Shown here in pieces: positions 84 to 25,857 of a stretch of DNA of 64,000 bases. The notes under the pieces were generated by a model. It had not been told where the DNA came from. It saw nothing but the letters and a program-made list of their open reading frames with translations, and did no database searches. The DNA is taken from sequence record OP595145.1; one strand, given 5' to 3'. Source of the stretch: Escherichia phage vB_EcoM_DE16. The translations under genes were made by a program, and so were the position numbers. Numbering within the stretch: position 1 is the stretch's first letter; every line of letters starts with the position of its first letter.

Positions 84-584
84 TTAGTTGTAAGCATCTA
101 AAGTTCCAGAAGTCAGAACTTTAATTACTCGTTCAGCACGGTTTGGCGTCTGGCTATACCATCGGCTTTTACGCATGTTTTTACCTGCTTGAGTATAATA
201 TGCATTGCTGATTAAAGTCAAGCTATTTTGAAACCCTTCAGCACCTTTTAACCCCAACTGGAAAACCATGTTGATTATTCCCAGTTTACGAGTATCACTA
301 ACCTTATCATAGATTGGTGATAAGATAGTACTGTTTTTTATGTCTCTCTTCACTTTTGCAACATCGTCAGCAAAGATTTGACGGGCTTCTTTTTCTGTGA
401 TAACTCCATTAGTCTTACGACCAAGAAGATTATCTAAGATTTGAATAGCCTTTGCTTTATCTTTTATTTTAGTCAGAAGGTGTCCTATGCCGACTGTCCA
501 ATAACCAAGATGGTCTTGATAAACAGTAAGCTTCAGTCCTTCATCGACTCGTAGCATATCAAACTCATCTACTACTTTAGCCAT
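84..584 (-). CDS. endolysin, T4 e-type lysozyme (GH24 muramidase)
   Basis: 166 aa; N-terminal DEGLKLTVYQD...GYWTVGIGH block matches the Glu/Asp/Thr catalytic region of T4 lysozyme; size matches. Confidence 0.85.
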   Translation of the reverse strand: MAKVVDEFDMLRVDEGLKLTVYQDHLGYWTVGIGHLLTKIKDKAKAIQILDNLLGRKTNGVITEKEARQIFADDVAKVKRDIKNSTILSPIYDKVSDTRKLGIINMVFQLGLKGAEGFQNSLTLISNAYYTQAGKNMRKSRWYSQTPNRAERVIKVLTSGTLDAYN

Positions 585-591
585 TTACTTC

Positions 592-741
592 CTATTCGTC
601 GTCTCCTACTCCGTGATCCAACTCGTTAAACAACAGATGTTCTGGAGAAGTTTCACGTTTTGGTTTCGTTTTCTTTATGTTGGACTTCAGCTCATTTGCC
701 AAAGCACGAGAAAAGATCTTACGTTTCTGTTTACTTTTCAT
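592..741 (-). CDS. small basic hypothetical protein (49 aa)
   Basis: ATG at 741 with upstream GGAG; K/R-rich product; fills gap between glutaredoxin and lysozyme genes. Confidence 0.3.
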   Translation of the reverse strand: MKSKQKRKIFSRALANELKSNIKKTKPKRETSPEHLLFNELDHGVGDDE

Positions 742-746
742 AATTG

Positions 747-1007
747 TTACTCCGCAATTTGAGCCATGAGATCACGCAGTTCGGTAAAACCGCCTACGTA
801 TGTTACCTCCCCGTTCACTTCAGACAGAATTTGTGGAAATGTGCGTGGAGGAACTCCGGTAAGATCAACAACTGTTTTAGTCATTGATTCTAAATCATAG
901 TCTTGGTCAAGACTTAAATATTCAAACTGTTTATTGCGCATAGTCAATAGTTGTTTTGACATTTCACAAAATTGACAGTTAGGTTTACCAAAAATTACAA
1001 ATTCCAT
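747..1007 (-). CDS. glutaredoxin-like protein (NrdH/Grx family)
   Basis: 86 aa, N-terminal CQFC (CxxC) redox motif in FGKPNCQFCE context; start overlaps rmlD stop. Confidence 0.7.
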   Translation of the reverse strand: MEFVIFGKPNCQFCEMSKQLLTMRNKQFEYLSLDQDYDLESMTKTVVDLTGVPPRTFPQILSEVNGEVTYVGGFTELRDLMAQIAE

Positions 1008-1849
1008 TACCTCTCCTTATTAAGTAATACTGCTAAAGACTGTTCAATACCTTTATTTAAATCTGATTTTGTAAGATAGTGACTGGTTACTAGTTGTGAC
1101 TTCACCGGACGTGCTGCTGGAGCATTATAGGTTGAAGCTGATACCGCCGATATCTTAACAGGTTCTGGCATCTGTGTCAAGATCTTTTCCGCAAACTCCG
1201 CCCAAGAAATAAGATGGCTTCCTGCAAAATGGTAAGTCTTAACAGACCTTGACCAACCTGTTTTTAATACTTCAAAAATAGCTTCTGCTAAATCTGGAGC
1301 ATATGTTGGACAAGATAACTGATCAGCAACAATAATAAAATCACGTTGTCCATCATTATAGCGAGACAACATGGTTTTTAGAAAGTTATTTCCAAATTCG
1401 CTATATACCGAGGCTGTTCGAATAATATATGCATTTGGGTTAACTCCTCGCACCATTTTTTCACCAAGTTCTTTCGTATACCCATAATTGTTTATTGGGT
1501 TAGGTGTAGTATCTTCAAAAATAGGATGAGAATAATTAAAAATATAGTCTGTGGAAATATGCACAAAATCAATTTTAAGTTTGCTGCACACTGCCGCAAT
1601 ATTTGCAGGGCCATAAGCATTAACAGCCAAAGCAGTAGCAAAATCTTGTTCGGCTTTATCTACAGCCGTATAAGCGGCGCAATTAATAACACCATCTACA
1701 TAATCTTCAACAATAGCGTTTCGCACAGCTTCAAAATTTGTAATATCTACACGTTCTTTAGGATAAATTAAAGATACATTTGCAGGAGCAACTTTACGTA
1801 AAGCTTGTCCCAGTTGTCCATTACCACCCAATACCAGATATGTTAGCAT
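1007..1849 (-). CDS. rmlD: dTDP-4-dehydrorhamnose reductase
   Basis: 280 aa; N-terminal GGNGQLG Rossmann motif, STDYIF and YGYTK catalytic motifs typical of RmlD. Confidence 0.8.
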   Translation of the reverse strand: MLTYLVLGGNGQLGQALRKVAPANVSLIYPKERVDITNFEAVRNAIVEDYVDGVINCAAYTAVDKAEQDFATALAVNAYGPANIAAVCSKLKIDFVHISTDYIFNYSHPIFEDTTPNPINNYGYTKELGEKMVRGVNPNAYIIRTASVYSEFGNNFLKTMLSRYNDGQRDFIIVADQLSCPTYAPDLAEAIFEVLKTGWSRSVKTYHFAGSHLISWAEFAEKILTQMPEPVKISAVSASTYNAPAARPVKSQLVTSHYLTKSDLNKGIEQSLAVLLNKER

Positions 1850-2409
1850 ACACCCTCGCTACGTAACTGTTGAAAAGATTTAGCCATTGCATCTTTTGTT
1901 GATAGGATAGGTTTAAAACCTTCATCAAAAATCATATCGAAGCCCCAATCGATCCCTATATCAGGATCATCCCAACGTAAACTTTGTTCACTAGAAGGGT
2001 CGTATGGAGTTGTGCATTTGTATTCAAAGATAGCATCCATACTCAAAACTATAAAACCATGTGCCAAACCAGGTGGAAGCCAAAACTGCGTATGGTGTCG
2101 TGCACGAAGAACAACACCGTCCCAAGCACCGTAAGTAGGACTATCTTTACGTAAGTCTACAGCGAAATCCAATACTTCACCACTTACACAACGAACAAGC
2201 TTACCTTGCGGATTATTTGTTTGAAAGTGCATTCCTCGCAAAACACCGAAGTTTGATTTAGACATGTTATCTTGAACGAAAGTTTGTCTACCAATAATAT
2301 CTTCGTATTTTTGTTCATTATATGTTTCTAAAAAGAAACCACGGTCATCTTTATAAACGTCTGGTTTGATAATTACCGCACCTTCAATTTTTGTTTTTTC
2401 TACTTTCAT
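1843..2409 (-). CDS. rmlC: dTDP-4-dehydrorhamnose 3,5-epimerase
   Basis: cupin-type RmlC motifs ([15 protein letters not shown]); start set at internal ATG 2409 (GGAGGG RBS) overlapping rmlA stop as ATGA; the track ORF 1843..2529 has a spurious upstream extension. Confidence 0.8.
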
Positions 2410-3284
2410 TTTCCCTCCGCTAATTTGAGTAGGTATTGCCCGTACTCTGTTTTCTTCAGTGAGTTTCCATGATAGACCAAAGTCTCTAAAGAAATCCACC
2501 CTTTTTTGAAAGCAATTTCTTCCAGGCACGCAATCTTCAATCCTTGACAGTTCTCAATAGTCTGCACGAATTGACCAGCTTCCATCAGACTGGCGTGTGT
2601 TCCTGTATCAAGCCAAGTAAATCCTCGTCCGAGAACTTCTACTTGTAACTTCCTGTCTTCGAGGTAGCTGCGATTGATATCGGTGATCTCCAGTTCTCCA
2701 CGCGCGGAAGGGGTTACTTCTAATGCACGTTGAATAACAGAGTTATCATAGAAATACAAACCTGTGACAGCATAATCTGATTTAGGATTTTCAGGTTTCT
2801 CTTCAATAGAAATAACTTGACGATTACTCCCAAATTCAACCACACCGAATCGTTCAGGATCTTTCACCAAACACCCGAAGATACAAGCTCCGCCCCAAAC
2901 ATCTACCATCTCACTAGCGTTAATCAGTAGTTTACCAAAGCTTTGTCCGAAGAATAGGTTGTCACCTAAAATAAGAGCAACAGAGTCTTCTCCGATAAAA
3001 TCTTTACCGATGATGAAAGCGTCCGCAAGACCTCGTGGCTCGGATTGGATTGCGTAAGTGAGTTTTATCCCAAACATAGACCCATCTCCAAGAAGATGCT
3101 CAAAGTCTTCCTGATCGCCTGGTGTGGTGATGATTAAGATATCCTTAATGTCAGCCAACATCAATACCGATAAAGGGTAGTAGATCATGGGTTTGTCATA
3201 CACAGGGAGCAATTGCTTGCTCACACTGCGTGTTACCGGATGAAGGCGGGTTCCACTTCCTCCCGCCAAAATAATACCTTTCAT
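2406..3284 (-). CDS. rmlA: glucose-1-phosphate thymidylyltransferase
   Basis: 292 aa; N-terminal [16 protein letters not shown] nucleotidyltransferase signature. Confidence 0.85.
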
Positions 3285-3292
3285 AACCCTCC

Positions 3293-4285
3293 TTAAATCT
3301 TCTCACTCCACCATTGAGGGTTGTTTAAGTACCATTCAATCGTTGAGTAGAGATCTTGTTCAAATGTAGAGTTTGCACTCCAACCCAGTTCAGACTCTAT
3401 TTTAGAAGGATTGATTTCATAACGCAAGTCATGTCCTTTACGATCTTCAACAAAAGTTATCAAGTTGGAAGAAGGGTAGGTTCCTGCTTCTGGATGTACA
3501 GCATCCATGTAGTCACAAACCATATAGATGATCTCCATATTGGTTTTGGGATTACGTGTTCCAACATTATACGTTTGACCTGGTTCTCCACCTGTTGCCA
3601 CTTGAAGAATAGCTCGCGCATGATCCTCAACAAAAAGCCAGTCTCGCACCTGATCGCCTTTACCATACACCGGAATCTCTTTATTCGTCAAGATACTTGT
3701 GATGATTTTTGGGATCAGCTTTTCTGGATGTTGATAAGGTCCAAAGTTATTGGAGCAGTTGGTTATCACAACAGGTAAACCGTAGGTACGGTACCAAGCT
3801 TTCACAAGATGGTCAGATGCTGCCTTAGACGCACTGTACGGGCTTGAAGGAGCATAAGCTGTCTCTTCGGTAAAGGGAACGCCAGAGTCTGCCATATCGC
3901 CGTACACTTCGTCTGTGGAGACGTGTACGAACATCTTCAGTTTATTTTTTGGGAGGAGCCTTGCAGCTTCCAATAAATTGTATGTGCCAATAATATTGGA
4001 GTCGATGAAAACTCGTGGATTCTTGATAGAATTATCCACATGACTCTCTGCCGCTAAGTGAATGATGAAATCGGGATTGCACTCTACTACTAAACTTTTG
4101 ACCTGGGTTTCGTTTGCCAAATCTGTTATGCTTAGTTTAACGTGAGTGATATCGCCTACATTCTCAATATCTGCTGCATAGCCCATCTTATCAACGACAA
4201 AAACTTCGTTATTGGGATCTTGACAAAGAGAGCGCACCACGGCACTCCCAATAAAACCAAGACCACCTGTTACCAGATAGCGCAT
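3293..4285 (-). CDS. rmlB: dTDP-glucose 4,6-dehydratase
   Basis: 330 aa; TGGLGFIGS Rossmann motif, STDEVYG and YSASKAASD catalytic motifs of SDR-type dehydratases. Confidence 0.85.
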
Positions 4286-4294
4286 CAGTTCTCC

Positions 4295-4621
4295 TTACCA
4301 GACGTTTTGTGATACTAACGTTTCAGTTTCAATATGGTACTTCTCGTAGAGTTCGAAATAAATCTCATTAGCTTTTTTATCCAAACTTGTGAGGTCTATT
4401 GCCCGTGCGCTGCATCCTGACGCAAGTTCAATACCAAAGACACAATCTTCAGGATCTGCATCATACCACGGGGAGACACTCACTAACCCAATACCTTCGT
4501 AAAGAAACCAGTTGAAATCCCCATCGAATTGATCCTCAATCTGCGGATCGCCTTTAAACACTTCTTCCCATTTCTTATATGGTGCGCCTTGCACCATCTT
4601 CCATTCGATATCAATCCCCAT
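4295..4621 (-). CDS. hypothetical protein (108 aa, acidic)
   Basis: ORF first in the rml operon; no recognisable motif. Confidence 0.5.
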   Translation of the reverse strand: MGIDIEWKMVQGAPYKKWEEVFKGDPQIEDQFDGDFNWFLYEGIGLVSVSPWYDADPEDCVFGIELASGCSARAIDLTSLDKKANEIYFELYEKYHIETETLVSQNVW

Positions 4622-4775
4622 TTTTCATCTCCTCCTCTTCTTGAGCAGCTTTAATAATTGCTTCATAAATATCGTAAGCAATGCCTCCACAACATCTAGC
4701 TTCGAAAGCTATTGCTTCTGCAATGTGATCTGTTAATTCTCGTGGAATGCGGACATACTCTTTTTCACTCTCCAT
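4611..4775 (-). CDS. small hypothetical protein (54 aa)
   Basis: ATG-initiated ORF found by manual translation; overlaps neighbours by a few nt; below 60-aa track cutoff. Confidence 0.3.
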   Translation of the reverse strand: MESEKEYVRIPRELTDHIAEAIAFEARCCGGIAYDIYEAIIKAAQEEEEMKNGD

Positions 4776-4917
4776 CTTCTACCTCCAACCCTTCTTTTTC
4801 AAAGACTACTACTCGTCCCTCACCATGACAATTCAGGCAAGGAAATGTTACCATAATTTCCACTTCCATCTGTCCCGTCCCACCACACACAGGACAAAAA
4901 ATAAGTTTTTCAGCCAC
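4765..4917 (-). CDS. small zinc-ribbon protein (50 aa, CPVCGG...CLNCHG)
   Basis: GTG start after GGAGG; two CxxC pairs; found by manual translation. Confidence 0.35.
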   Translation of the reverse strand: MAEKLIFCPVCGGTGQMEVEIMVTFPCLNCHGEGRVVVFEKEGLEVEDGE

Positions 4918-5126
4918 TATTCCTCCTTAATTATTTCAAATTTGGCAACACCATTTACAATAATATGACCACAAGACATAACTCCTAGCCAAGGATCGCC
5001 GTTTTTCTTCAGGCGTTTACCGAATACATCACAAAAACCATTCTTCATTTCAGAGGCTTCATAAGAAGCCCCTTTATCAAAAACGTCTTTGAATGTGTCG
5101 ATTATACCAACACATTTCAAAATCAT
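4917..5126 (-). CDS. hypothetical protein (69 aa)
   Basis: ORF abutting nrdB stop. Confidence 0.4.
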   Translation of the reverse strand: MILKCVGIIDTFKDVFDKGASYEASEMKNGFCDVFGKRLKKNGDPWLGVMSCGHIIVNGVAKFEIIKEE

Positions 5127-6211
5127 TAGAAGTCAAGCTCCTCATCATCAGAGAGATCTTTGTTAGCTGAATTCAATTTGTAATTAGTTAACTGAATCTC
5201 TTGGGCTGCTGACTGAATCAAATCAGGATTCAACCATTTTTCCATCCAAGCTAAAGGGCTATGTTTAGGTGCTTTAAACTTGGCTTTCATTTTCAATCGA
5301 CGATAAATAGGAGCAGCATTGAAATAAACCCACTGTTTAGACAATTCGGCGTTAAGACCTACAATAAAACGACCTTCACTAAACAGGTAGTCACACCATT
5401 GTTCCTCTTGTTCAACAACAGTGTCGAGGATCAAAGTCAACTCTTCAATATTGTCTTCGTAAATTTTACGCCAAATTGGGTCATGCATCAATGCATCAAT
5501 TACAGCATAATCCATTTTAACATGCAGGATTTCATCTAGCATAATTTTCTGGATCAGTTTACAAGCCCCAACAAACAGTTGTTGTTCTGCCATAGCAAAA
5601 GTAGCAGAGAAGGAAGATATAAACTGAATACCTTCTAATCCAATCAGGGCTACCATCCCTTTAAGAATCAGCAGTCGAAGTTCATCGTTAGCTTCAATCA
5701 ATCCTAGAGCATACTTATGACCAGCTTCTTCCAATTGACCCATGATATCAGCAATGATACCCATACGATTGAAAATTTTATCATTAATCATAATCTGATT
5801 GATGACTTCGATTGGATCTGGAGTACATTGACGGATTATTTCAGAATACGTTAACGCATGGAGAACTTCCATTTCACTCTGCTTCATCATCATAGCACAG
5901 GCTTCATTGTTACTCAAGAATGGAGAGAACAAAGTGATGATTGATTTTGCAAGAGAATCATTTTCCCATTGGAACGATAAGTTTTTAATCATAACATCAT
6001 AGTTGTTTTTAGAACAAGCTACGAAATCTTTACGTGTCTGATCCAGATTGACTTCATTCTCATCCCAATCTTGTGCTTTTTGAAGTTTGTAGAGTTTGTG
6101 CATCTCTGGATAAGTTACGTTAACAGAATCAAAGATCCCTAACTGTTCCCCTAAAAATACTGGATATTTTCCTGTTTTGTAAACTTCATTGTGTAAATTA
6201 ATTGCTGCCAT
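5126..6211 (-). CDS. nrdB: ribonucleotide reductase class Ia small subunit
   Basis: 361 aa; paired E..H iron-ligand motifs (EVLHALTYSE, DEILHVK) and ferritin-like helical composition. Confidence 0.8.
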   Translation of the reverse strand: MAAINLHNEVYKTGKYPVFLGEQLGIFDSVNVTYPEMHKLYKLQKAQDWDENEVNLDQTRKDFVACSKNNYDVMIKNLSFQWENDSLAKSIITLFSPFLSNNEACAMMMKQSEMEVLHALTYSEIIRQCTPDPIEVINQIMINDKIFNRMGIIADIMGQLEEAGHKYALGLIEANDELRLLILKGMVALIGLEGIQFISSFSATFAMAEQQLFVGACKLIQKIMLDEILHVKMDYAVIDALMHDPIWRKIYEDNIEELTLILDTVVEQEEQWCDYLFSEGRFIVGLNAELSKQWVYFNAAPIYRRLKMKAKFKAPKHSPLAWMEKWLNPDLIQSAAQEIQLTNYKLNSANKDLSDDEELDF

Positions 6212-6230
6212 TTAAAATTCTCCTCAATAA

Positions 6231-6250
6231 AAGGGGGCCGAAGCCCCTTT
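6231..6250 (-). terminator. intercistronic GC stem-loop between nrdA and nrdB (GGGGC-UUCG-GCCCC on the transcribed strand)
   Basis: same hairpin as at 64..81; followed on the transcribed strand by UUUUAUU and the nrdB RBS. Confidence 0.4.
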
Positions 6251-6279
6251 ACGTTTACCCTTCTTCACCTGTTCTCCTA

Positions 6280-8523
6280 CTACATTTTACAGGCACTGCA
6301 CCCTTCGTCTTCAGAATCTTCTTGTGCTAAAGAGTCTGCTGATTTTGTTCTACTATTAAGGTAATACAATGATTTGCCACCCAGTCTAGCAAAATTCAGA
6401 ATAAACTGCATCTCAGCTTTCACGGATAAACGTCCACCTACCAATTTAGAATAATCTAGCCAAGAATCACAAGAAATTCCTTGGTCAGTAAACTTGGTAA
6501 AGATACCGTACATTTCTGCAAGGTCTTTAGCCGGAGTATCCCAGGCAGACTGGTAGAACATTTTCAGTTTTTCGTAGTCTGGAACAATAAATAATACACT
6601 ACCTTTCTGACTCTGTTTATACATAATAGTATCACGAACAGGATACAGAGAGTTAGTAGTATTGCTTACCAAACTGCTGGACTCATTAGGTGCAATAGCA
6701 GCCAAGACACTGTTACGGATACCACCTTGTTCAATGATTTCAGCACGTAAGCCTTCCCAGTCCATTTTAAGATCAAAATTACCGATACTATCTACTGTTT
6801 TAGCATAAGTGTCAATTGGTAGCCAACCTTGAGGCCATTTGGTCTTATCGATCCATTCCGCATTACCTTTTTCCTTAGCCAGACGCAGAGAGGCTTTTGC
6901 CAACCAAAAGTAATGACGTTCTGCAAGTTCATGCATTAATTTTTTAGCATAAGCATCTGAATAATTTACAAAATTACTTGCCAAGTAATGCGCTAAGTTT
7001 GTAATACCTACACCAATAGATCTACGTGCTTTAGCAGTTATTTCGTTATGTTTAAATGGATAATCCATTGTTTCAATAACGTTGTCAATTGTCAATACAG
7101 TGTAGTATGCAACATCCTCATATTCTTCAGGTAATACACGACCAGCAACAATAGAAGATAAGAAGCATAAAGCCAATTCTTGATCTTCTGTATTCTCACC
7201 AGTAAAGAGATCCGGCATACTGTGGAAAGCTTTAGTTGGCAAGAAGATCTCTTGACACAGGTTTGATTGATACACCGTATCCAGGAAAGGTGTATGGTTG
7301 TTAACGTTGTCAGCAAAGAACATGTAAATACGTCCTGTTTCTGCACGTTGAACAATAATCTCTGTCAGAAGATCACGAGCCTTAACAAATTTTTTCTTAA
7401 TGCGTCGTCTACTTACTTTGTCATAAACTGCATCAAACTCTTCTTCACTTTTATATAAAGCTTCATAAAGTTCAGGAGCATCATCACAACTAACTAACAT
7501 CCAGTCTTCGTTTTTTGCTGCTCGACGCAAGAACGAACGGTTAACAACAATAGAATAATCTAGTTTATCCACTCGTTTATCTATAGGTGTTGTTGGATTC
7601 TTCAGTCGAATCAGATCGTCGAAGTCTGGTTCAAGTATGGTAAAGGTAACTGTAGCACTACCTCCACGGCTTGCTTGCTTTGAAGCTCCAACACTATCTT
7701 CCATCCATTTCAGATACGGAAGAAGACCACCGTGAATAATACGATTATTCTTAACACCTTGACCTGTGGCACGAGTTTGAAGATTAACACCAATACCTGC
7801 GTTATTCAACGTATACTCATGAGCTAAGTAATTAGCAATGGCTAAAGACTCTGCCGTATCGTCTGCACGGAATAAACAACAAGACGCACTTCCTTTGATT
7901 GGAGTTCGTAGAGTTGTCAGATATGGCGATGGCAGATTAATCTTAAGATCGCTGACATAAGTATAAAGTTTTTTAATATCTTCTATACGGCGTTCTTTTG
8001 GTTGGATCTCCATAACCTTCATTGCGATACCAATGAAAAGGAACTGTGGAGACTCATGCACCACATCGTTTACTGCATCTCGAATAAGATATTTATCCAC
8101 CATTTGACGTAAAACAGAATAACCATAAGTTAGATTTTTATTATGCTTTACAATCTTACCGATTTCTTTGATCTCTTCATCAGTATAATCCATTTTAGCC
8201 CAATGACCACGTTCTACCATATCATGATAAAAGGTATTCAGTGAAGGGATACTGTGGTATCCCCCATGAGCCTGTTTGTAAATCATACCCAGAAGAAGTC
8301 TTCCTGCCATATCACTGTAAGCTTGTGTTTTCTTGTCAATACACGCTGCAATCATTGCTTTATGCAGATCACGTGTAGACACACCGTCATAACACCGCTT
8401 CACAGCTTCTAATTCAATTTCAGACCAGTTTAGTTTACCTGCTGCAAATTCAGACCACTTGCGAAGTTTTTCTGGGTTAAACTCCTCTGTCTTACCATTA
8501 GATTTAGTTACAAAACGAATCAA
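6280..8523 (-). CDS. nrdA: ribonucleotide reductase class Ia large subunit
   Basis: 747 aa; N-terminal ATP-cone-like region; size and adjacency to nrdB; overall RNR alpha-like composition. Confidence 0.85.
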   Translation of the reverse strand: MIRFVTKSNGKTEEFNPEKLRKWSEFAAGKLNWSEIELEAVKRCYDGVSTRDLHKAMIAACIDKKTQAYSDMAGRLLLGMIYKQAHGGYHSIPSLNTFYHDMVERGHWAKMDYTDEEIKEIGKIVKHNKNLTYGYSVLRQMVDKYLIRDAVNDVVHESPQFLFIGIAMKVMEIQPKERRIEDIKKLYTYVSDLKINLPSPYLTTLRTPIKGSASCCLFRADDTAESLAIANYLAHEYTLNNAGIGVNLQTRATGQGVKNNRIIHGGLLPYLKWMEDSVGASKQASRGGSATVTFTILEPDFDDLIRLKNPTTPIDKRVDKLDYSIVVNRSFLRRAAKNEDWMLVSCDDAPELYEALYKSEEEFDAVYDKVSRRRIKKKFVKARDLLTEIIVQRAETGRIYMFFADNVNNHTPFLDTVYQSNLCQEIFLPTKAFHSMPDLFTGENTEDQELALCFLSSIVAGRVLPEEYEDVAYYTVLTIDNVIETMDYPFKHNEITAKARRSIGVGITNLAHYLASNFVNYSDAYAKKLMHELAERHYFWLAKASLRLAKEKGNAEWIDKTKWPQGWLPIDTYAKTVDSIGNFDLKMDWEGLRAEIIEQGGIRNSVLAAIAPNESSSLVSNTTNSLYPVRDTIMYKQSQKGSVLFIVPDYEKLKMFYQSAWDTPAKDLAEMYGIFTKFTDQGISCDSWLDYSKLVGGRLSVKAEMQFILNFARLGGKSLYYLNSRTKSADSLAQEDSEDEGCSACKM

Positions 8524-9299: not shown

Positions 9300-10298
9300 T
9301 CACCATTTAGTATGATTTGTTAAAAGTTGACGATGTTGAATCCAACCTTTGAAATTGCCAGACCAAAACTTACCATTACGATCTACATGGGTAATACCTG
9401 GTTCCCAAGAGTTAAAATCCCAAGGAGCATTGATAAACAAATCTTCAAAACAGTTCTCTCCGTATTGTTCGCATGTTTCTTGCATTGGGGTGGCTTGATG
9501 TTCAAACGGAGAAGCATGAACCTTGCGCCCAGTTAGCAAACGACCATAAATATCTAAAGCTTTATCTTTAGTTGCATTCAAACGACGATAGCTAACCTGT
9601 GCACAACACGAAGCTGAAATAGCTTTAGCTTCTTCCAAAGTAAGCACAACAACTTCTCCAGATTCATCTTGAACATAGTATCCACCAAAAACAAAATGAT
9701 CGTCACCTTCTGTGCCAATATTATCATAGAAATGGTCTACATAAGGTGTGTGCCATTGCCCTGGTTTAAGCACTTCTGGTGTAGATTCTTCATACTCTTT
9801 GTGCATCTCTTTAGCCAAAGCTTCGATAGTAGGATCGGCTTCTTTGTCATCACGTAGCCACCAGAAATTTTCATATTCTGTTGCTGTCAGAACTGTTTTA
9901 ATTCGTTGGAAAGGTTCCAGAAGACGGTTTGCAACTTGTTTGTGGTACCCTGCCAAAGAGAATTCTTCTGCAAAACGTGCTGCACTAAGCGCGGCAAGAT
10001 CCCACCACTCTTGAGCAGTATAACCTGCATCAATAAGAGCGTCATGATCAACACCTTTATCCTGCATACCAGGTTGGTTAGCCCCAAAACGATAAGGACG
10101 AGCAGGCTGATTTCGCACCATTTCGATCAGTGTTTTAACAGGTATAGCACGGCTAGAAGCAGCGTTACGACTGAATAGGCGGTGAGTCATCAGTTCTGAA
10201 TGAATAATACGTGGATATTCAAGTTCGAAAGTTACAATCTCTTTTCCGTCTTCAGTGATGGAATGCGCAATAATACTAGCCGAAATCTGTTTTGTCAT
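9300..10298 (-). CDS. flavin-dependent thymidylate synthase-like protein (ThyX family, atypical)
   Basis: THRLFSRNAASSR matches the ThyX RHR-x7-S-x-x-x-R signature except Thr for the first Arg; 332 aa is about 100 aa longer than canonical ThyX. Confidence 0.55.
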   Translation of the reverse strand: MTKQISASIIAHSITEDGKEIVTFELEYPRIIHSELMTHRLFSRNAASSRAIPVKTLIEMVRNQPARPYRFGANQPGMQDKGVDHDALIDAGYTAQEWWDLAALSAARFAEEFSLAGYHKQVANRLLEPFQRIKTVLTATEYENFWWLRDDKEADPTIEALAKEMHKEYEESTPEVLKPGQWHTPYVDHFYDNIGTEGDDHFVFGGYYVQDESGEVVVLTLEEAKAISASCCAQVSYRRLNATKDKALDIYGRLLTGRKVHASPFEHQATPMQETCEQYGENCFEDLFINAPWDFNSWEPGITHVDRNGKFWSGNFKGWIQHRQLLTNHTKW

Positions 10299-16825: not shown

Positions 16826-17953
16826 TTATTCTGCTGGTTCCCAAGTGCCTGGGATCATTTCTCGAATACGAACACCAACAGGTTTTGTTGGAATACCTTC
16901 ATCTGAAAATTCTTCATACTCTATTTCAACGAACTGATTAATCAAGGTAGAAGCATTCTCTGCTTTACGATAATTGATAGTCTCATGAGCATCTTTACGC
17001 ATTAAGAATTCAACTACTTTACCATTTTCCATCTCACCTGTCAACACTCCATCGCCATTTTTATCACTTTTTGAATTTATTACTTTAACTTCAAGCGTAT
17101 GACGAGGCTTACGTTTAATAACATCATAAGAACGTTTATCAAATTCGTAAACTCCGTGAGCATTACGATATACTACACCTTCAGCTTTCTCAAGTAAAGC
17201 TTTTTCATAGAAAGCATCAAACTGTTCTTGGTTTTCGATATACTCTGTATGAACTACACAAATAAGCTCATCAAGACCATAATCCTCCACTACTGCCTTA
17301 AGAGCAGTAAGAACATCAACACGTTTTTCAAACGGTAGATCTGGAACTGGAATATCGTATACGTAATAATTCAGCAAAGGTGTATTTGCATTATGCTTCT
17401 TCCAGGCACTGTTAATTTGTTGCAGACTAAGGACACCTAACCCAGCAAACACTTCACCATCAAGAGGATGACCAACAACTTCACTAATAAAGTTTGGAAT
17501 ACCTTTCCAATGAGGTGGCAGGTTATACACTTCCCCAGCTTTTGATAAGCACTCCCCTTTCATGTTAATCATAGAACGTAACCCGTTCAGTTTGTATTGT
17601 GCATAACCAGGGAACACAACCCTTTCAGGATAATCTTTATAATCCTGGCATTTCATTGGTGTGGAAGGAACATGGTTTTCAGCTTCTTCTTTTGTTTTAT
17701 AATAGCCATTCTTTAACTGTTTTGTCCATTTGGCAAAAGCTTCAAGTTCAGCTTGTTCTTCCGGTGTTGTTTCATTGGAACGACCAATGTTTTTTGCTTC
17801 TGCTGTATAAGATTTTTCTGTGATTTTTCCACCTACCCTTCCATGAGCTACAGTAACAACTGCACCATCTGTATACACTGTCCACTGTTTAAGTTTTCCT
17901 TTTGAATCTTTACCATACAGCGTTTGATTTGTTTGTTGCATTAGTCCTCCCAT
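16826..17953 (-). CDS. ATP-dependent DNA ligase
   Basis: 375 aa; KLNGLR nucleotidyltransferase motif I region and OB-fold-like C-terminus. Confidence 0.7.
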   Translation of the reverse strand: MGGLMQQTNQTLYGKDSKGKLKQWTVYTDGAVVTVAHGRVGGKITEKSYTAEAKNIGRSNETTPEEQAELEAFAKWTKQLKNGYYKTKEEAENHVPSTPMKCQDYKDYPERVVFPGYAQYKLNGLRSMINMKGECLSKAGEVYNLPPHWKGIPNFISEVVGHPLDGEVFAGLGVLSLQQINSAWKKHNANTPLLNYYVYDIPVPDLPFEKRVDVLTALKAVVEDYGLDELICVVHTEYIENQEQFDAFYEKALLEKAEGVVYRNAHGVYEFDKRSYDVIKRKPRHTLEVKVINSKSDKNGDGVLTGEMENGKVVEFLMRKDAHETINYRKAENASTLINQFVEIEYEEFSDEGIPTKPVGVRIREMIPGTWEPAE

Positions 17954-18162
17954 TTAAAAACTGAAATTTTCAATCTGTTACACACTTCATCCAAATCTGC
18001 GTCGAGTAACGTTGTAGATGTTGCCAACATATAATCAATGCTTGTGAAACCTTGCCCTTTGGCATAGTCAAGCATATCTTCATACATATCTTCAAGATCA
18101 CCGTCATCAAAAGTAGCTAGAAAATCCTCGTCCCCACTACGAACATAAAATGCAGTACTCAT
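17941..18162 (-). CDS. hypothetical protein (73 aa, acidic)
   Basis: ORF only. Confidence 0.45.
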   Translation of the reverse strand: MSTAFYVRSGDEDFLATFDDGDLEDMYEDMLDYAKGQGFTSIDYMLATSTTLLDADLDEVCNRLKISVFKWED

Positions 18163-18350
18163 TCTTCTTCATCCCAAGATTCAAAAGCACAACAATCATC
18201 GGTTTCTATAATACCAACACGTCCGCAGGTATTGCAAGTGATTTTATCCCCGTAGAATAAATAATTTTTATCACCCTCTGTGTTTACAGTTATGTCATTA
18301 CTACCACAAGGGCAAGTCAGCCAACCAACAACAACGATATCTTTTTTCAT
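18159..18350 (-). CDS. zinc-ribbon protein (63 aa)
   Basis: CPCG ... CNTCG cysteine pairs. Confidence 0.45.
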   Translation of the reverse strand: MKKDIVVVGWLTCPCGSNDITVNTEGDKNYLFYGDKITCNTCGRVGIIETDDCCAFESWDEEE

Positions 18351-18359
18351 AATCCCTCC

Positions 18360-18686
18360 TTAAGCGTTCAGTTCGTTGTTGAGTTCGTAAATCTCTTCTT
18401 GAAGAGCATCAATCTCTTCCTCCAAACGGGAGATCTCTTCTTTTAGATATACCATTTCGGATTCTTTCTCTTCTAATTCATTTTCAAATTTTACTTTATT
18501 AGCCTCATTTTCATAATGCAGTTCAGCGTAATCATCACGCATTTGTTCAATAAGATGAATCAGAGACAAGATATAATTATCTCCCGTTTCATCACGCCAC
18601 TCTTCACCGTGACGGAGAACGGTAATTCGTCCAGTATCTTCATCTAAAATTGTCTCATATTTACGATCATCTGTATAAATCTGCAT
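18360..18686 (-). CDS. coiled-coil protein (108 aa)
   Basis: heptad-rich EEIxRLEEEIDALQEEIYEL C-terminus. Confidence 0.45.
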   Translation of the reverse strand: MQIYTDDRKYETILDEDTGRITVLRHGEEWRDETGDNYILSLIHLIEQMRDDYAELHYENEANKVKFENELEEKESEMVYLKEEISRLEEEIDALQEEIYELNNELNA

Positions 18687-18695
18687 TATTTCTCC

Positions 18696-19100
18696 TTATT
18701 GAAGTTTAAGTGAACCACGAAGACGTTTCTCTTGCTGATCACGGATATATTGTGGAACCTCGTGAATTGAATCATTACCGTGCCTATTTTCAACAACTAA
18801 AGAGATAACTTGATAACCAAACTCTTCAGCAAGAGCTAGATAAGGTTTAAGTTCTTTCTCTGTGGTTGAAGTATTAGAAACAATAATCTTGTTAAGATTA
18901 GATGCCATAGCATCACGAACAATACCCTGACACCATGCGTGTGCTTTACCTACATTTTCTGGCTTCCAGTCGTAAACACCACTTTCTGTGTAATGATATT
19001 GATCTGCCTCACAGATAGGCCAATAACCTTCAGAAATAATTTCTGCTACCGTAGATTTACCAGCACCTGAAACGCCACGTAAAATGATAAGTTGTTTCAT
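18696..19100 (-). CDS. P-loop kinase (polynucleotide/nucleotide kinase-like)
   Basis: Walker A GVSGAGKST at N-terminus; 134 aa. Confidence 0.55.
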   Translation of the reverse strand: MKQLIILRGVSGAGKSTVAEIISEGYWPICEADQYHYTESGVYDWKPENVGKAHAWCQGIVRDAMASNLNKIIVSNTSTTEKELKPYLALAEEFGYQVISLVVENRHGNDSIHEVPQYIRDQQEKRLRGSLKLQ

Positions 19101-20033
19101 TTATCCTCCAAAGAAGTTTTCGATTTTTTCACGTCGCTCTTGCTGATTTAAAGCAGCCCATTGAGTCTTCGTAAAATTATTTCGAATCCATTCTAACAAA
19201 GCGTAATATTCTTCGTCAACAATTTGTTTGGCATTTTTCGGATTATCCCAAATCAGATCCCACTTTTTATCTCCACCGCGCATAAGAAACTTCTTAGTAA
19301 GATAGTGTGGTGATTTAATTTTTAAAAGTAAGTTGAACGGATAGTTTGTTTCACGAACTACAAACCCTTCGTGTTTACAATGTTTAGACATTTCAACAAC
19401 ATCTGAAAACTTAACCATTGGATGAACTTCAGGACGCTTAAATTTGGTGACAGAAGCAATTCCATCAAGAGCACCTTCAGGTAACATAAAACTTGTCCCA
19501 TCAGGTTTTTGAATTCTGGCACCAATTAAGTATGCACCTGGTTCTTCTTCGACAATATGCGGATCAGAAGGATCACAGATTTCAAAAAGGAAAGTTGCTT
19601 TTGCGCTCTCTGTCCATTTGATGAAATGTTCTATGTCATCACACTCTGAAACAATATGATTCTTTGCAATACTTGCAAAATCTGATTCAAGGCTTCCTGT
19701 TGTCGATACAATAAGTTGACCTTTATATACACCTACAGAGGCCATAAAACCATTTACTTTACGAACCACATCTACAAGTTCATCCGCTGGTAGATCTGTG
19801 CCATTCTCAAAACGATTAAAAATCTTAGTGAAAGGCCAAATAACAACATTGTCATCACCATCAACAACGATTCCGCGACATTCTAGAAGACGAGAATCAA
19901 TGTTCCATAGGTTATCCCAGAAAACTTTGTTCTTATACTTAAGAACAGATAGACCAGAATACTCTCCTTCTTTATATGTTTTCTTATGAACTAAACCTTT
20001 TTCAACCAAATCGTCGCAATTAAATTTAGTCAC
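19101..20033 (-). CDS. RNA ligase-like nucleotidyltransferase
   Basis: KVNGF motif I lysine; second ligase-type gene besides the DNA ligase, flanked by kinase and phosphatase genes. Confidence 0.45.
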   Translation of the reverse strand: MTKFNCDDLVEKGLVHKKTYKEGEYSGLSVLKYKNKVFWDNLWNIDSRLLECRGIVVDGDDNVVIWPFTKIFNRFENGTDLPADELVDVVRKVNGFMASVGVYKGQLIVSTTGSLESDFASIAKNHIVSECDDIEHFIKWTESAKATFLFEICDPSDPHIVEEEPGAYLIGARIQKPDGTSFMLPEGALDGIASVTKFKRPEVHPMVKFSDVVEMSKHCKHEGFVVRETNYPFNLLLKIKSPHYLTKKFLMRGGDKKWDLIWDNPKNAKQIVDEEYYALLEWIRNNFTKTQWAALNQQERREKIENFFGG

Positions 20034-20034
20034 A

Positions 20035-20586
20035 TTACTCTCCTTTGATTATTTTGTGATGGTCTACAGTTACGATATCTCGTTTACTCATCATAGAAAT
20101 TATCTCATCAAAATGCAAGATTTTTCCGTGTGCATCCCAACCCACATCTAACATTTTACCATAAGCTTCATCAGGGAAAGATCCGTGGGAATGCCCGTGT
20201 AGCATGATTGATCCACGACCTTGTTTATTCCAGGAGGCAATAGGGTAATGGCTTAAGACGAAGAACAGCTTCTGGTATTTCACTTCGTCATAATACACCA
20301 CTTCGCCATACTCTGCAAGCACTTCTCGGTGCTTGCTGTAATCATGGTTCCCAACAAGATAAGTGATATCCCCTTGCAGACGGGAAGCAATCTTACGGGT
20401 ATCTTCTTCAGTCCCGAAACAGAAGTCGCCCAAATGCCACATCTTAACACCAGGAGTAGTAGCGCATTTATTCCATGCTTCGATCAGTGCTTCTGTCATG
20501 TGGTCCATATCTTCCCACGGTCGATATTCAGGAGCAAACTCTCGTATACGTTTGTGCATAAAATGCAAATCACTTGTAATAAACAT
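20035..20586 (-). CDS. calcineurin-like metallophosphoesterase
   Basis: DLHF, GDF, GNHD, GHSHG metal-binding motifs in canonical order. Confidence 0.6.
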   Translation of the reverse strand: MFITSDLHFMHKRIREFAPEYRPWEDMDHMTEALIEAWNKCATTPGVKMWHLGDFCFGTEEDTRKIASRLQGDITYLVGNHDYSKHREVLAEYGEVVYYDEVKYQKLFFVLSHYPIASWNKQGRGSIMLHGHSHGSFPDEAYGKMLDVGWDAHGKILHFDEIISMMSKRDIVTVDHHKIIKGE

Positions 20587-20942
20587 TAGTATAATCCCTC
20601 GCTAAATAGGTCACGATCATGACCATTACGTTCGTAGTCAATCTGGTCTGCGTGTTTTGCAATAATGTATGCATCTTCACGACTCCACCAATTGTAGTAT
20701 TGATCAATAAAACCTTGATTGTTTGGAAGACAATGCACTTTATCAAGCACACCTGCTTCTTTCAATACATTCAATTGTGCTGATAATATAGGATTTGCAT
20801 GTCGAACACAAGGAATAATTAACTCTTCACCATTATTCAAAATATATTTATTCGCAGCACAGACGATAACACGTTGCACATAATGACCCTCACCAATCCA
20901 GGTAAGAGGTTGGTAACAAATGTTCTGATCAATACTACTCAT
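20586..20942 (-). CDS. hypothetical protein (118 aa)
   Basis: ORF only. Confidence 0.5.
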   Translation of the reverse strand: MSSIDQNICYQPLTWIGEGHYVQRVIVCAANKYILNNGEELIIPCVRHANPILSAQLNVLKEAGVLDKVHCLPNNQGFIDQYYNWWSREDAYIIAKHADQIDYERNGHDRDLFSEGLY

Positions 20943-20953
20943 TAAGTTTCTCC

Positions 20954-21310
20954 TTAATAGTGAACACGAATCATTTTAATACCATAACGCAGCATGGATT
21001 CTTTTGCAAGCATGAATTTATCCCCAGCGGCGGGATTAGAAGTATGCACGAAAATGGTAGGTGAACCAAAGCAAGGTTTACCAAACGCCAGAAGTTCTTC
21101 CAAACGCAAGAAAACATCATACCCGTCTTGATCAGAATCTTCACCCAAATCGTTGTCAAAATGCCACTCGTCTACAAAACGATAACCCTTCTGCACCTCA
21201 TTCATGTAACGAGAGGCAAGAAGTTCCTGTGAGGTTTTAAACCAGATTGCATCTGGACAACCATAATCTTTTGGATCACGTAAATCATCAAGCCAAATAA
21301 TAGTACCCAT
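20954..21310 (-). CDS. hypothetical protein (118 aa)
   Basis: ORF only. Confidence 0.5.
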   Translation of the reverse strand: MGTIIWLDDLRDPKDYGCPDAIWFKTSQELLASRYMNEVQKGYRFVDEWHFDNDLGEDSDQDGYDVFLRLEELLAFGKPCFGSPTIFVHTSNPAAGDKFMLAKESMLRYGIKMIRVHY

Positions 21311-21320
21311 ATAACCTCCT

Positions 21321-21791
21321 CTAAGCTGGCATTATTAAAAAAGAACTCTCCACTTCAAAATGCCAATCATCCACAAGCCCTGATTCCCAATCCTTCTCTT
21401 CATGGAAAGAGCAAATCCAACGGTACATACCTGGCGGTGTATTCTCAACATCTTCTGGCAACCCGTAATCCAAAGCTGTCAAACCGTTCTCTGTAAAACT
21501 AGGATGGAGATTAGGAGCTTTCAATACAGAAACCATGCCTCCAACATCTACAGCCACAATCCACTCTGTCATGTATGGGCTGTCATATTGAGGCTCATCA
21601 GAACCTACCTCAACAGCCTCTGTGCGTAAGATGATAATAGCCTGCTCTGTGATTGGGGCTTTGACAATATAACCTTGGTCCTCAAAAAGATCGATAACCT
21701 CGAACTCATCGCCGTTTTCGACACCATAACTCTTATTCAAAGAGATAAACTTCGGGTTATCATCGTAAGCTTTAGTTACTTTAATTTTCAT
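21321..21791 (-). CDS. hypothetical protein (156 aa)
   Basis: ORF only. Confidence 0.5.
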   Translation of the reverse strand: MKIKVTKAYDDNPKFISLNKSYGVENGDEFEVIDLFEDQGYIVKAPITEQAIIILRTEAVEVGSDEPQYDSPYMTEWIVAVDVGGMVSVLKAPNLHPSFTENGLTALDYGLPEDVENTPPGMYRWICSFHEEKDWESGLVDDWHFEVESSFLIMPA

Positions 21792-22012
21792 TTTTCCTCC
21801 TTCACTTTAACCTCAAATTCTACAGGCTTACCCTCAATGTAAAAACACTGATACTCTGCCTTATCATCCTCGTCACGAGGCCAAGTTACCAAGGAGTTAT
21901 AGCAATCTTCTGGTGCTTTGAAGATGTTTTTAGTCTCCACAGTAACATTCCCATTAAGTGTTGCCAATACCACCCAACCAGCTACAGGGATCATAGTGTC
22001 TCCACTTTCCAC
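21788..22012 (-). CDS. hypothetical protein (74 aa)
   Basis: ORF only. Confidence 0.4.
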   Translation of the reverse strand: MESGDTMIPVAGWVVLATLNGNVTVETKNIFKAPEDCYNSLVTWPRDEDDKAEYQCFYIEGKPVEFEVKVKEEK

Positions 22013-22173
22013 GTTTTACCATTATCAACCAAGGTCTTTGCTACAGCATACTCCTTCCCATTAACAAGGAAATAATAAACGATAAAAGATTTCCCGATTG
22101 TTACTGTCTTAGTAACCTCTACACGTTTAACGCCTTGCATGTATTTTGCCTTACCGGAATAGAGTAAAATCAT
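21991..22173 (-). CDS. hypothetical protein (60 aa)
   Basis: ORF only. Confidence 0.35.
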   Translation of the reverse strand: MILLYSGKAKYMQGVKRVEVTKTVTIGKSFIVYYFLVNGKEYAVAKTLVDNGKTWKVETL

Positions 22174-22451
22174 TTTGCATTCCTCTTGTTGTTGATAACA
22201 TCCATAGCAGTATATGGTTTATTAGTGCCATGATACTCCAGAATCATTGGAGAGCCTTCTTGCACTACTTCAAAGATACCATAAACAGAACTTTCAGCAA
22301 ATACCATTTGCTTCGTGCCTTCATCGTTTACAACGAGAGAAAACTTCTTGCCTGTCCCGTTGAGGATCTCGTATTTCTTGCCAGCAGTGAATAATCCAGA
22401 GTACCACTCATTATCTGTTGCTTTTACACACTTCAGGAAAGTCTTGATCAT
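22170..22451 (-). CDS. hypothetical protein (93 aa)
   Basis: ORF only. Confidence 0.45.
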   Translation of the reverse strand: MIKTFLKCVKATDNEWYSGLFTAGKKYEILNGTGKKFSLVVNDEGTKQMVFAESSVYGIFEVVQEGSPMILEYHGTNKPYTAMDVINNKRNAK

Positions 22452-22801
22452 TTCTTTTTGCTCCTCTTTTTAGATTTCTCATACAAACCTAACACAGCCG
22501 CTTCTTTTGCACAAGTAGGAACTGAAGTCATTCCTCTTCTTTTTGCTTCTGGAAGATTGAGTGTCCACCATCCGAACCAATAAATTTGGTCTGCCGTGAG
22601 TGGTTCAGCCATTGGATCTGCCTCCTGCTCCTCAAGACGTTGCAACGCTTCTTCAATCTTCTCGATTGGTGTGTCAAAGACGAATGCCTCCGTATCAAAT
22701 TTATCTTTCTTAGGAACTGATTTGGCTACTTTGAGAACCTCGTTTTTCGGTTTCTTAGTAACGTTCTTTGGCTTTGATAACTTCTTCTGTGTTTTCGCCA
22801 C
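22448..22801 (-). CDS. lysine-rich hypothetical protein (117 aa)
   Basis: K-rich N- and C-termini, possible nucleic-acid binding. Confidence 0.45.
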   Translation of the reverse strand: MAKTQKKLSKPKNVTKKPKNEVLKVAKSVPKKDKFDTEAFVFDTPIEKIEEALQRLEEQEADPMAEPLTADQIYWFGWWTLNLPEAKRRGMTSVPTCAKEAAVLGLYEKSKKRSKKK

Positions 22802-25064: not shown

Positions 25065-25139
25065 TGGCCCTGTAGCTCAATGGGAGAGCTGTCGGCTCAT
25101 AACCGATAGGTAGCTGGATCGAAACCAGCCAGGGCCACC
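25065..25139 (+). tRNA. tRNA, anticodon CAT (Ile2 lysidine-type or Met)
   Basis: manual cloverleaf: acceptor GGCCCTG/CAGGGCC, anticodon loop CTCATAA, T-loop, encoded CCA; resembles bacterial tRNA-Ile2. Confidence 0.7.
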
Positions 25140-25142
25140 AAC

Positions 25143-25217
25143 GTCTTTATGGTGTAATGGATAGCACAGGAGTCTTCTAAACTCTTAGTCAAGGTTCGAT
25201 TCCTTGTAAAGACACCA
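25143..25217 (+). tRNA. tRNA-Arg (anticodon TCT)
   Basis: acceptor GTCTTTA/TAAAGAC, anticodon loop CTTCTAA, T-loop GGTTCGATTCC, encoded CCA. Confidence 0.7.
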
Positions 25218-25413
25218 GAATATTTTAACATGAATTAGCTCAAGTGATTTGAACCCCACTACTGATCATGGTGGCAGAGAATGAGGCAAGTATGTCAGAC
25301 ATTATAAACAAAGGCCACGGTTATATTAGAAGACATAGACGCTCGAAGAGCACCGTTCGTGGAGAACGGGGGTTGGTGGAGTCACCATTCATGGTAAAAT
25401 GTTTTAAAAAACT

Positions 25414-25443
25414 ATTGACAACAAACATTATTTTATGTTAGAT
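25414..25443 (+). promoter_or_regulatory. sigma70-like promoter candidate (ACTATTGACA -35 box)
   Basis: TTGACA then 17 nt then TTAGAT, upstream of tRNA-Ser. Confidence 0.4.
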
Positions 25444-25451
25444 TATAAGTA

Positions 25452-25542
25452 TGGAAGGGCAAATCGACGTGGCGACGAAAACGGTCTTGAAAACCGCCGA
25501 GCTTGAAAGAGCCTTGGGAGTTCGACTCTCCCTCCTTCCGCC
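25452..25542 (+). tRNA. tRNA-Ser (anticodon TGA), class II
   Basis: anticodon loop CTTGAAA, long variable arm, T-arm GGGAGTTCGACTCTCCC, discriminator G, encoded CCA; D-arm fold is irregular. Confidence 0.6.
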
Positions 25543-25547
25543 AGATT

Positions 25548-25633
25548 AGGTAGATTGGTGAAATGGTAGCCACAACAGTTTGCTAAACTGTAGTCGGAAA
25601 CGGCGTGTAGGTTCGAGTCCTACATCTACCGCC
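25548..25633 (+). tRNA. tRNA-Ser (anticodon GCT), class II
   Basis: acceptor GGTAGAT/ATCTACC, anticodon loop TTGCTAA, variable-arm hairpin, discriminator G, CCA. Confidence 0.7.
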
Positions 25634-25763
25634 AAGTTCTTTTTAATATAGCTTACTTTAATAGAGTAAACTTTCGGCAGATGGCCTCCACCATCTTACC
25701 GATACTTCATAGTTAGTGGTGCGAACACTGGCTATTTTAAAAAGAATTTAAATACTAGCATTT

Positions 25764-25851: not shown

Positions 25852-25857
25852 AAATTA

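Follow-up and report, generated by a model that had tools for sequence, protein, structure and literature searches.

A dTDP-L-rhamnose cassette in the ribonucleotide reductase operon of Phapecoctavirus phages and the possible use of its sugar

Introduction

The enzymology of dTDP-L-rhamnose synthesis is textbook material; of more interest is the use to which a virulent coliphage might put the activated sugar. This question is raised by the rml cassette of Escherichia phage vB_EcoM_DE16 (record OP595145.1), of which a stretch of 64,000 nt, called the window here, was analysed; all coordinates are window positions unless another genome is named. Four intact genes, rmlB, rmlA, rmlC and rmlD, appear to give the phage a complete and apparently functional dTDP-L-rhamnose pathway. 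Comparison with related genomes points to a use for its product, to which a probability of roughly 0.6 is given: the dTDP-rhamnose made by the phage is used by the phage's own module of glycosyltransferases (GTs), on an acceptor other than DNA. The cassette and the main interpretive idea are already published and are not presented as a discovery. It was reported at this very position by Olsen et al. 2020 (Viruses 12:986, PMC7552041), who called it "peculiar" in a region of DNA metabolism and suggested rhamnosylation of hydroxymethylated nucleotides. The rml genes are also annotated by name in more than 100 GenBank records.

The Four Rml Enzymes

Families were assigned with the curated cut-offs of NCBIfam equivalog hidden Markov models, with Pfam, and by alignment to solved enzymes. 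RmlB scores 429.8 bits against TIGR01181 (cut-off 365.1), RmlA 461 bits against TIGR01207 (cut-off 360.65), RmlC 225 bits against TIGR01221 (cut-off 155.75) and RmlD 236.7 bits against TIGR01214 (cut-off 224.05, a narrow margin). The Pfam assignments are concordant for all four. RmlB aligns with the Salmonella enzyme 1G1A (E = 7e-111) and also with 1BXK; it keeps STDEVYG, which holds the TDE dehydratase triad, together with YSASK (YxxxK) and the GxxGxxG NAD site. RmlA aligns with the glucose-1-phosphate thymidylyltransferase 4HO0 (E = 8e-124) and keeps the N-terminal GGSGTRL. In RmlC, aligned with Salmonella RmlC 1DZR (E = 4e-56), the catalytic residues are all found: His (in LRGMHFQ), Lys (GKLVRC), Tyr (FEYK) and Asp (TKDA). 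The best matches of RmlD in the PDB are 3SC6 and 1VL0 (155 and 153 bits, E ~1e-44), with 104 bits for Salmonella RmlD 1KBZ; STDYIF and YGYTK, which carry the Thr/Tyr/Lys triad of the SDR family, are kept. The four family names given in the initial annotation, for which a profile and BLAST check had been proposed, are thus borne out by scores above every equivalog cut-off and by conserved catalytic motifs. In an infected cell RmlA would make dTDP-glucose from dTTP and glucose-1-phosphate, RmlB would dehydrate it to dTDP-4-keto-6-deoxyglucose, and RmlC and RmlD would turn this intermediate into dTDP-L-rhamnose.

The genes belong to a run of co-directional, densely packed minus-strand open reading frames (ORFs) at 84-8523. 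From upstream to downstream these are:

6280-8523, minus strand: nrdA, large subunit of class Ia ribonucleotide reductase (ORF; annotated as NrdA in relatives)
5126-6211, minus strand: nrdB, small subunit of class Ia ribonucleotide reductase (ORF; annotated as NrdB in nieznany, ESCO37 and phi92)
4611-5126, minus strand: three small ORFs (ORF list)
4295-4621, minus strand: ORF of 108 amino acids with no recognisable family, upstream of rmlB
3293-4285, minus strand: rmlB, dTDP-glucose 4,6-dehydratase, 330 amino acids (TIGR01181 and alignment to 1G1A)
2406-3284, minus strand: rmlA, glucose-1-phosphate thymidylyltransferase, 292 amino acids (TIGR01207 and alignment to 4HO0)
1843-2409, minus strand: rmlC, dTDP-4-dehydrorhamnose 3,5-epimerase, 188 amino acids (TIGR01221 and alignment to 1DZR)
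1007-1849, minus strand: rmlD, dTDP-4-dehydrorhamnose reductase, 280 amino acids (TIGR01214 and alignment to 3SC6 and 1VL0)
747-1007, minus strand: glutaredoxin with CQFC, 86 amino acids (PF00462; 1EGO, 1AAZ)
592-741, minus strand: basic ORF of 49 amino acids between the glutaredoxin and lysozyme genes (read from the sequence; the same as nieznany gp045)
84-584, minus strand: T4-type lysozyme, 166 amino acids, the downstream flank (PF00959, E = 5e-11)

Translation of rmlC begins at the ATG at 2409; the GTG that lies further upstream, at 2529, is not its start. The stop of rmlA and this start share ATGA, rmlC and rmlD overlap by 7 nt (ATGCTAA), rmlD and the glutaredoxin gene (grx) by 1 nt (TAATG), and a gap of 8 nt lies between rmlB and rmlA. 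The initial annotation had described four consecutive minus-strand genes in the order rmlB-A-C-D, overlapping in this way and set between the ribonucleotide reductase genes and the lysozyme, and the ORFs at 1007-4285, the three overlaps and the two flanks agree with it. Its range of 747-4621 covers the rml and glutaredoxin genes but also takes in the 108-residue ORF, which is not an Rml gene.

An Insertion into a Reductase Operon

The glutaredoxin scores 38.1 bits against PF00462 (cut-off 22.9), has its CQFC active site at residues 11-14 and belongs to phrog_22 (thioredoxin domain). Among solved structures it resembles E. coli Grx1 (1EGO) and the T4 glutaredoxin (1AAZ); the specific NCBIfam glutaredoxin equivalogs GrxA, Grx3 and NrdH all score below cut-off, so that it is placed in none of these subfamilies. 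Its homologue in phage phi92, gp063, matches gp141 of PVP-SE1, a phage that lacks rml genes, and NrdB matches PVP-SE1 gp139, so that a single gene separates the two in that phage. Because the glutaredoxin homologue of PVP-SE1 almost directly follows NrdB, the comparison indicates that the rml genes are an insertion into an nrdA-nrdB-grx operon, between nrdB and grx. The most fitting role for the glutaredoxin, of the Grx1/T4-NrdC type, is to reduce the NrdAB enzyme encoded next to it. A part for it in the sugar pathway was considered and rejected on the synteny with PVP-SE1 and the likeness to Grx1 and the T4 protein, which tie the gene to NrdAB. The earlier description of a rhamnose pathway "with a glutaredoxin" therefore stands for the presence of the gene and its overlap with rmlD, but not for its role, since the protein would serve NrdAB. 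In nieznany an HNH homing-endonuclease gene (16883-17539 of that genome) lies between nrdA and nrdB; the window lacks it (~6211-6280).

Distribution and Origin

The phage belongs to Phapecoctavirus, in the Stephanstirmvirinae, and is a phAPEC8-like myovirus of ~150 kb. The window is ~97% identical to vB_EcoM_01 and nieznany, and maps to the latter from 23795 down to 1 and from 144998 down to 105198. Over the rml region many GenBank phages show 96-99% identity to it, and in most of these the four genes already bear their names. A close RmlC (at least 60% amino acid identity) is found in ~129 phage records. In phi92, of the sister genus Justusliebigvirus, the layout is identical (NrdB, small ORFs, RmlBACD, glutaredoxin, lysozyme), with proteins 55-72% identical to those of the window. 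For all four rml genes compared between the window and phi92, pN is 0.21-0.30 and pS 0.64-0.83. Because pN is far below pS, the genes have been under purifying selection since Phapecoctavirus and Justusliebigvirus split.

Since homologous rfb and rff genes exist in E. coli, the cassette could in principle be an artefact or an inert passenger, that is, host DNA mis-assembled into the phage sequence (the refuting possibility named in the initial annotation) or a recently captured host fragment in decay. This is hardly credible. Matches to the DNA at 600-4800 come from 124 phage records sequenced independently; identity is 95-99% in 63 of these, and 46 cover at least 80% of the region. In 5,426 complete E. 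coli genomes identity reaches ~64% at most, and no genome covers at least 80% of the query. The gene order also differs, the host rfb cluster running B-D-A-C and the phage cassette B-A-C-D. The four ORFs are intact and under purifying selection across genera, and they are translationally coupled to the flanking phage genes. Mis-assembled host DNA, or a decaying fragment of recent capture, is excluded by the matches to phage records, the low identity to E. coli and the signs of selection.

Several records labelled as phages of Campylobacter, Pseudomonas or Acinetobacter (MG065650, MG065645, MG065656, OR584014 and OP562383) group by sequence with the E. coli Stephanstirmvirinae. One of them, MG065650, shares 98% identity with the window over the rml region. 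Such records may carry a wrong host label or stem from contaminated preparations.

A Conserved rmlCD Core

Not all relatives carry the four genes. RmlC is found at 95% identity or more in 64 phage records, and rmlB-rmlA DNA at that level in ~41. About a third of the Phapecoctavirus records keep rmlCD only, and the window represents the four-gene variant. For example, phage ESCO37 was reported in a 2023 paper to lack rmlA and rmlB. The two genes are absent cleanly: the 108-residue ORF is followed directly by rmlC, the junction lies in a GGAG Shine-Dalgarno microhomology that preserves the ribosome-binding site, and rmlC, rmlD and grx are 97-99% identical to those of the window. Base composition separates the two pairs as well, with a GC content of 0.43 for rmlB and rmlA, above that of the backbone too, and 0.37 for rmlC and rmlD.

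All 5,426 E. coli genomes have matches to the phage rml DNA (60-80% identity), the top-scoring ones on rfbA/rfbB. All E. coli have RffH and RffG, which act in the synthesis of the enterobacterial common antigen, whereas the presence of RmlC and RmlD depends on the O-serotype. Because every E. coli can supply dTDP-4-keto-6-deoxyglucose through RffH/RffG-type enzymes, rmlBA is accessory, and the conserved core is rmlCD, the two steps that commit the intermediate to rhamnose. On the simplest reading the phage would need dTDP-L-rhamnose whatever the serotype of its host, and rmlBA would only raise the flux.

The 108-residue ORF next to rmlB has no match in Pfam or NCBIfam and falls in phrog_15453, of unknown function. 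It is 96% identical to its counterparts in phiWec179 and "Pseudomonas phage PsgM04F", 80% to that of vB_EcoM_01 and ~56% to those of most Phapecoctavirus phages and phi92; the genes that flank this hypervariable ORF stay 97-99% identical. It looks like a fast-evolving or often exchanged small protein, of which the window carries a rare allele. As its position beside the rml genes is conserved, membership of the cassette was considered for it and rejected: the ORF adjoins rmlC in phages without rmlBA, has a weak homologue in a Salmonella phage that lacks rml genes, and is hypervariable, and it is treated here as part of the backbone.

The Glycosyltransferase Cluster

The glycosyltransferases of this phage family are known from nieznany, where gp197-gp200 are four consecutive GT genes a short way upstream of those for the primase/helicase and the DNA polymerase. 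A tblastn search of the window with these four proteins gave no match, and no GT is annotated in the regions of nieznany that correspond to the window. The initial annotation had also seen no GT here, and had supposed a glycosylation system that the visible genes do not explain. This holds within the window; a search of the rest of the genome, which it had proposed, leads to the cluster that every relative carries, estimated from their genomes to lie just outside, ~9-12 kb beyond the right end of the window. It was found in 133 phage records, which belong to the subfamily in which the rml genes also occur. In phi92 it lies between homologues of PVP-SE1 gp006 and gp008. Relative to the rml-less backbone of PVP-SE1 (Vequintavirinae), both the GT cluster and the rml cassette appear as insertions.

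The four proteins fall in PHROG glycosyltransferase families with strong scores and match Pfam weakly. Two of them, gp199 and gp200, are paralogous GT-B enzymes similar to GT4. Sequence-profile searches of gp198 and gp199 against the PDB gave nothing significant. Structure searches returned generic GT-A/GT2-like and GT-B/GT4-like folds, from which neither donor nor acceptor can be read. The only other phage matches of gp198 are GTs of Mycobacterium phages (328 records), in which they form part of a GT cassette in the right arm; the listed examples are Cheoctovirus (Che8-like) phages, with 24-28% identity to a GT other than gp108-110. In nieznany the segment 29874-37482 places the cluster beside genes for TerC, TerD-domain and vWA-TerF-like proteins, with a SleB-type endolysin between.

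Related modules occur in unrelated phages. Bacterial homologues of gp199 lie in prophages. Genes like gp198 and gp199 are adjacent in Pseudomonas silvicola, Enterobacter huaxiensis, Serratia sp. M24T3 and several viral contigs, and a gp197-like gene often accompanies the pair in prophages and viral contigs. In temperate phages the module is found between the lysis genes and the genes for terminase, portal and capsid. It is thus a mobile unit, mainly phage-borne, that functions in hosts whose envelopes differ greatly. In two lineages the module has gained an inserted gene for an NDP-hexose 4,6-dehydratase of RmlB type. This enzyme carries the TDE motif, shares 30% identity with the RmlB of the window, and has TIGR01181 as its best family, at a score below cut-off. 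Apart from this dehydratase, IMG/VR contigs with gp198 homologues showed no rml genes at a distance of up to 10 kb. The inserted enzymes are an independent association of the module with 6-deoxyhexose metabolism. Promoter and terminator scans around the prophage module gave no clear signature of a moron (an independently acquired accessory gene). On a Burkholderia dolosa contig (3025-8440) a 411-residue homologue of gp199 seems to share an operon with the genes for an invasin/intimin-type adhesin and for a 571-residue protein; this may be a case of adhesin glycosylation.

Possible Acceptors of the Rhamnose

In the model preferred here dTDP-rhamnose would feed the phage's own soluble gp197-200 module, whose product, assembled in the cytoplasm, would be a short glycan that contains rhamnose. 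The use of dTDP-rhamnose by these enzymes and the identity of the acceptor are the parts of the model that we infer. The initial annotation named phage DNA, a virion protein such as the fibres, and the host envelope as candidates for the acceptor, and the literature search found no paper that identifies it. One or more virion proteins are the preferred guess, with a lipid-linked glycan of the host envelope ranked second. A virion acceptor is favoured by the occurrence of the module mainly in phages and prophages, by its position next to head genes in temperate phages, and by precedents in mycobacteriophages and giant viruses. The full proposal, in which rmlCD (with or without rmlBA) and gp197-gp200 form a self-contained cytoplasmic system that puts a rhamnose-containing glycan on virion proteins, is tentative, and the odds run against it.

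Several observations weigh against a rhamnose-using GT module and a virion acceptor. The rml and GT clusters, putative partners, are ~70 kb apart. Since they occur together within one subfamily, shared ancestry confounds the association. No enzyme among gp197-200 is specifically recognisable as a rhamnosyltransferase, and the two GT-B paralogues resemble retaining GT4 enzymes, usually users of UDP- or GDP-sugars. In the Stephanstirmvirinae both clusters sit among genes for DNA metabolism and replication, not among late structural genes, a location that gave rise to the DNA hypothesis, and the literature searched reports no glycosylated virion protein for this subfamily. BLASTP of the GTs against Che8 gp108-110 gave E values of 0.012 or weaker for all pairs tried. 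Finally, gp198 has weak matches to DNA-modifying enzymes: 19 bits, below cut-off, to TAGT (a TET-associated family), and E = 5e-6 over ~40 residues to the PHROG of the T4 beta-glucosyl-HMC-alpha-glucosyltransferase.

These last matches, the location of both clusters in nucleotide-metabolism and replication modules, and the precedent of phages that pair a nucleotide-sugar pathway with DNA-acting GTs (PMC13326640) all speak for the proposal of Olsen et al. 2020, in which rhamnose is placed on a modified base of the phage DNA and helps it to evade nucleases. We nevertheless consider it improbable. According to Maffei et al. 2021 (PLoS Biol 19:e3001424, PMC8594841), phi92-like relatives with the same genes are "exceptionally susceptible" to restriction-modification despite their "putative dTDP glycosylation machinery". 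Among the larger ORFs of the non-structural half of the window, and in the annotation of nieznany, there is also no base hydroxylase, no dCMP or dUMP hydroxymethylase, and no TET or JBP protein. A DNA acceptor is disfavoured because the relatives are restriction-sensitive and no base hydroxylase or hydroxymethylase was found. In the loci of temperate phages that were examined, the Pfam-annotated neighbours of the GT module likewise include no DNA-modification enzyme. The sole thymidylate-synthase homologue is of the ThyX type (9300-10298, minus strand). It matches Pfam Thy1 weakly (35 bits) and has THR where the ThyX signature is RHR. It was considered as a base hydroxylase and rejected, since its family is widespread in phages that lack rml genes (1,034 phage records in all, including rV5-like, ICP1 and Pseudomonas phages).

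The host envelope is a somewhat better candidate than DNA, if still an unlikely one. A dTDP-rhamnose pool that the phage raises or creates would here alter lipid-linked glycans (O-antigen units, intermediates of the enterobacterial common antigen or glycoforms of the lipopolysaccharide core), which would be built by host transferases or by the phage GTs on acceptors linked to undecaprenyl diphosphate (Und-PP). The effect could be a block to superinfection, a smaller loss of progeny on debris, or sequestration of undecaprenyl phosphate. In textbook metabolism the routes to rhamnose and to the Fuc4NAc of the enterobacterial common antigen diverge at dTDP-4-keto-6-deoxyglucose, and, according to Klein et al. 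2011, the core of E. coli K-12 can incorporate rhamnose. The structural neighbours of gp198 and gp199 include many enzymes of lipid-linked or cell-wall glycans (PglA/PglH-type, PimA/B, WaaG, TarP and RmlT), and the module of temperate phages lies just after the lysis cassette, a classic moron position. However, no flippase, polymerase, ligase or GtrA/B-type membrane component accompanies the module in the loci examined, and a virulent phage has little time for a change of surface. The recurrence of the module in phages of E. coli, Pseudomonas, Serratia and Klebsiella also fits a phage-borne acceptor better. A link through the enterobacterial common antigen as a receptor was dropped, as the wecB dependence of relatives is now ascribed to the NGR glycan (PMC11990801).

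Comparison with Known Systems

The closest systems are the rmlBACD cassettes of phAPEC8, phi92 and other Stephanstirmvirinae, which have the same genes between nrdB and grx, at 95-99% DNA identity within Phapecoctavirus. Nothing essential sets the window apart from them beyond its being the four-gene variant with a rare allele of the 108-residue ORF. Bacterial operons (rfbBDAC of E. coli and Salmonella, rmlBDAC of Pseudomonas) encode the same four enzyme families with conserved catalytic residues. The phage cassette differs from them in its B-A-C-D order, its DNA identity to E. coli of at most 64% and an RmlD much nearer to 3SC6 and 1VL0 than to 1KBZ, and no genes for an O-antigen transferase, flippase or polymerase adjoin it.

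Among virulent myoviruses T4 glucosylates hydroxymethylcytosine. Phages RB69, DLP3 and HY126 have DNA with arabinosyl-5-hydroxycytosine, which is restriction-resistant and depends on a sugar supply of their own and a ThyA-homologue hydroxylase (NAR 2026, PMC13326640). The likeness to the present phage lies in the combination of a nucleotide-sugar pathway with several GTs near genes of nucleotide metabolism. In contrast, those phages need a hydroxylase or hydroxymethylase homologous to ThyA and have DNA that resists restriction; here no such enzyme was found and the relatives are restriction-sensitive.

For a virion glycan the comparison is with mycobacteriophages Che8, Corndog and Myrna, with chlorovirus PBCV-1 and with Mimivirus, all of which have a virus-encoded set of soluble GTs with or without a sugar pathway. 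Freeman and colleagues reportedly described, in 2023, virion glycosylation by phage GTs in the three mycobacteriophages. PBCV-1 and Mimivirus, both giant viruses, make their own rhamnose as UDP-L-rhamnose, whereas the pathway of the phage makes dTDP-L-rhamnose. Che8 differs in that its gp108-110 have no detectable similarity to the coliphage GTs, and these coliphages are not known to have a glycosylated virion protein. We know of no earlier description of virion glycosylation in phages of Gram-negative bacteria.

Other Features of the Window

The window has some features unrelated to rhamnose. A segment at 17950-22475 (minus strand), especially 18696-20586, is absent from nieznany. It encodes a T4 Rnl1-like RNA ligase (19101-20033), an AAA_33 kinase-like protein (18696-19100) and a metallophosphoesterase (20035-20586), and resembles the modules that repair tRNA and so counteract anticodon nucleases. 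Ten tRNA genes (two for Met and one each for Arg, Ser, Asn, Thr, Gly, Gln, Pro and Ile) are found at 25066-27177 on the plus strand. At 4765-4917 (minus strand) a protein of 50 amino acids has a CxxCxGxG zinc ribbon that resembles, below threshold, the central domain of DnaJ; its counterpart in phi92 is gp070.

Biological Meaning

The question of what the rhamnose is for is now narrowed to defined genes, the rmlCD core and the gp197-200 transferases. Natural variants that lack rmlBA, and the homologous modules of temperate phages, are ready material for comparison. The phages concerned are of practical interest, since therapy cocktails, and the BASEL collection as well, make wide use of members of Phapecoctavirus and Justusliebigvirus. 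If the glycan were on the DNA or on the host envelope, a new mechanism of anti-defence or exclusion would be at hand. A glycan carried by the virions could, as in mycobacteriophages, influence their recognition by the immune system, their stability or their range of hosts. It would then be, to our knowledge, the first such case for phages of Gram-negative bacteria, and the same module would have this role in many temperate phages of Pseudomonas, Enterobacter and Serratia.

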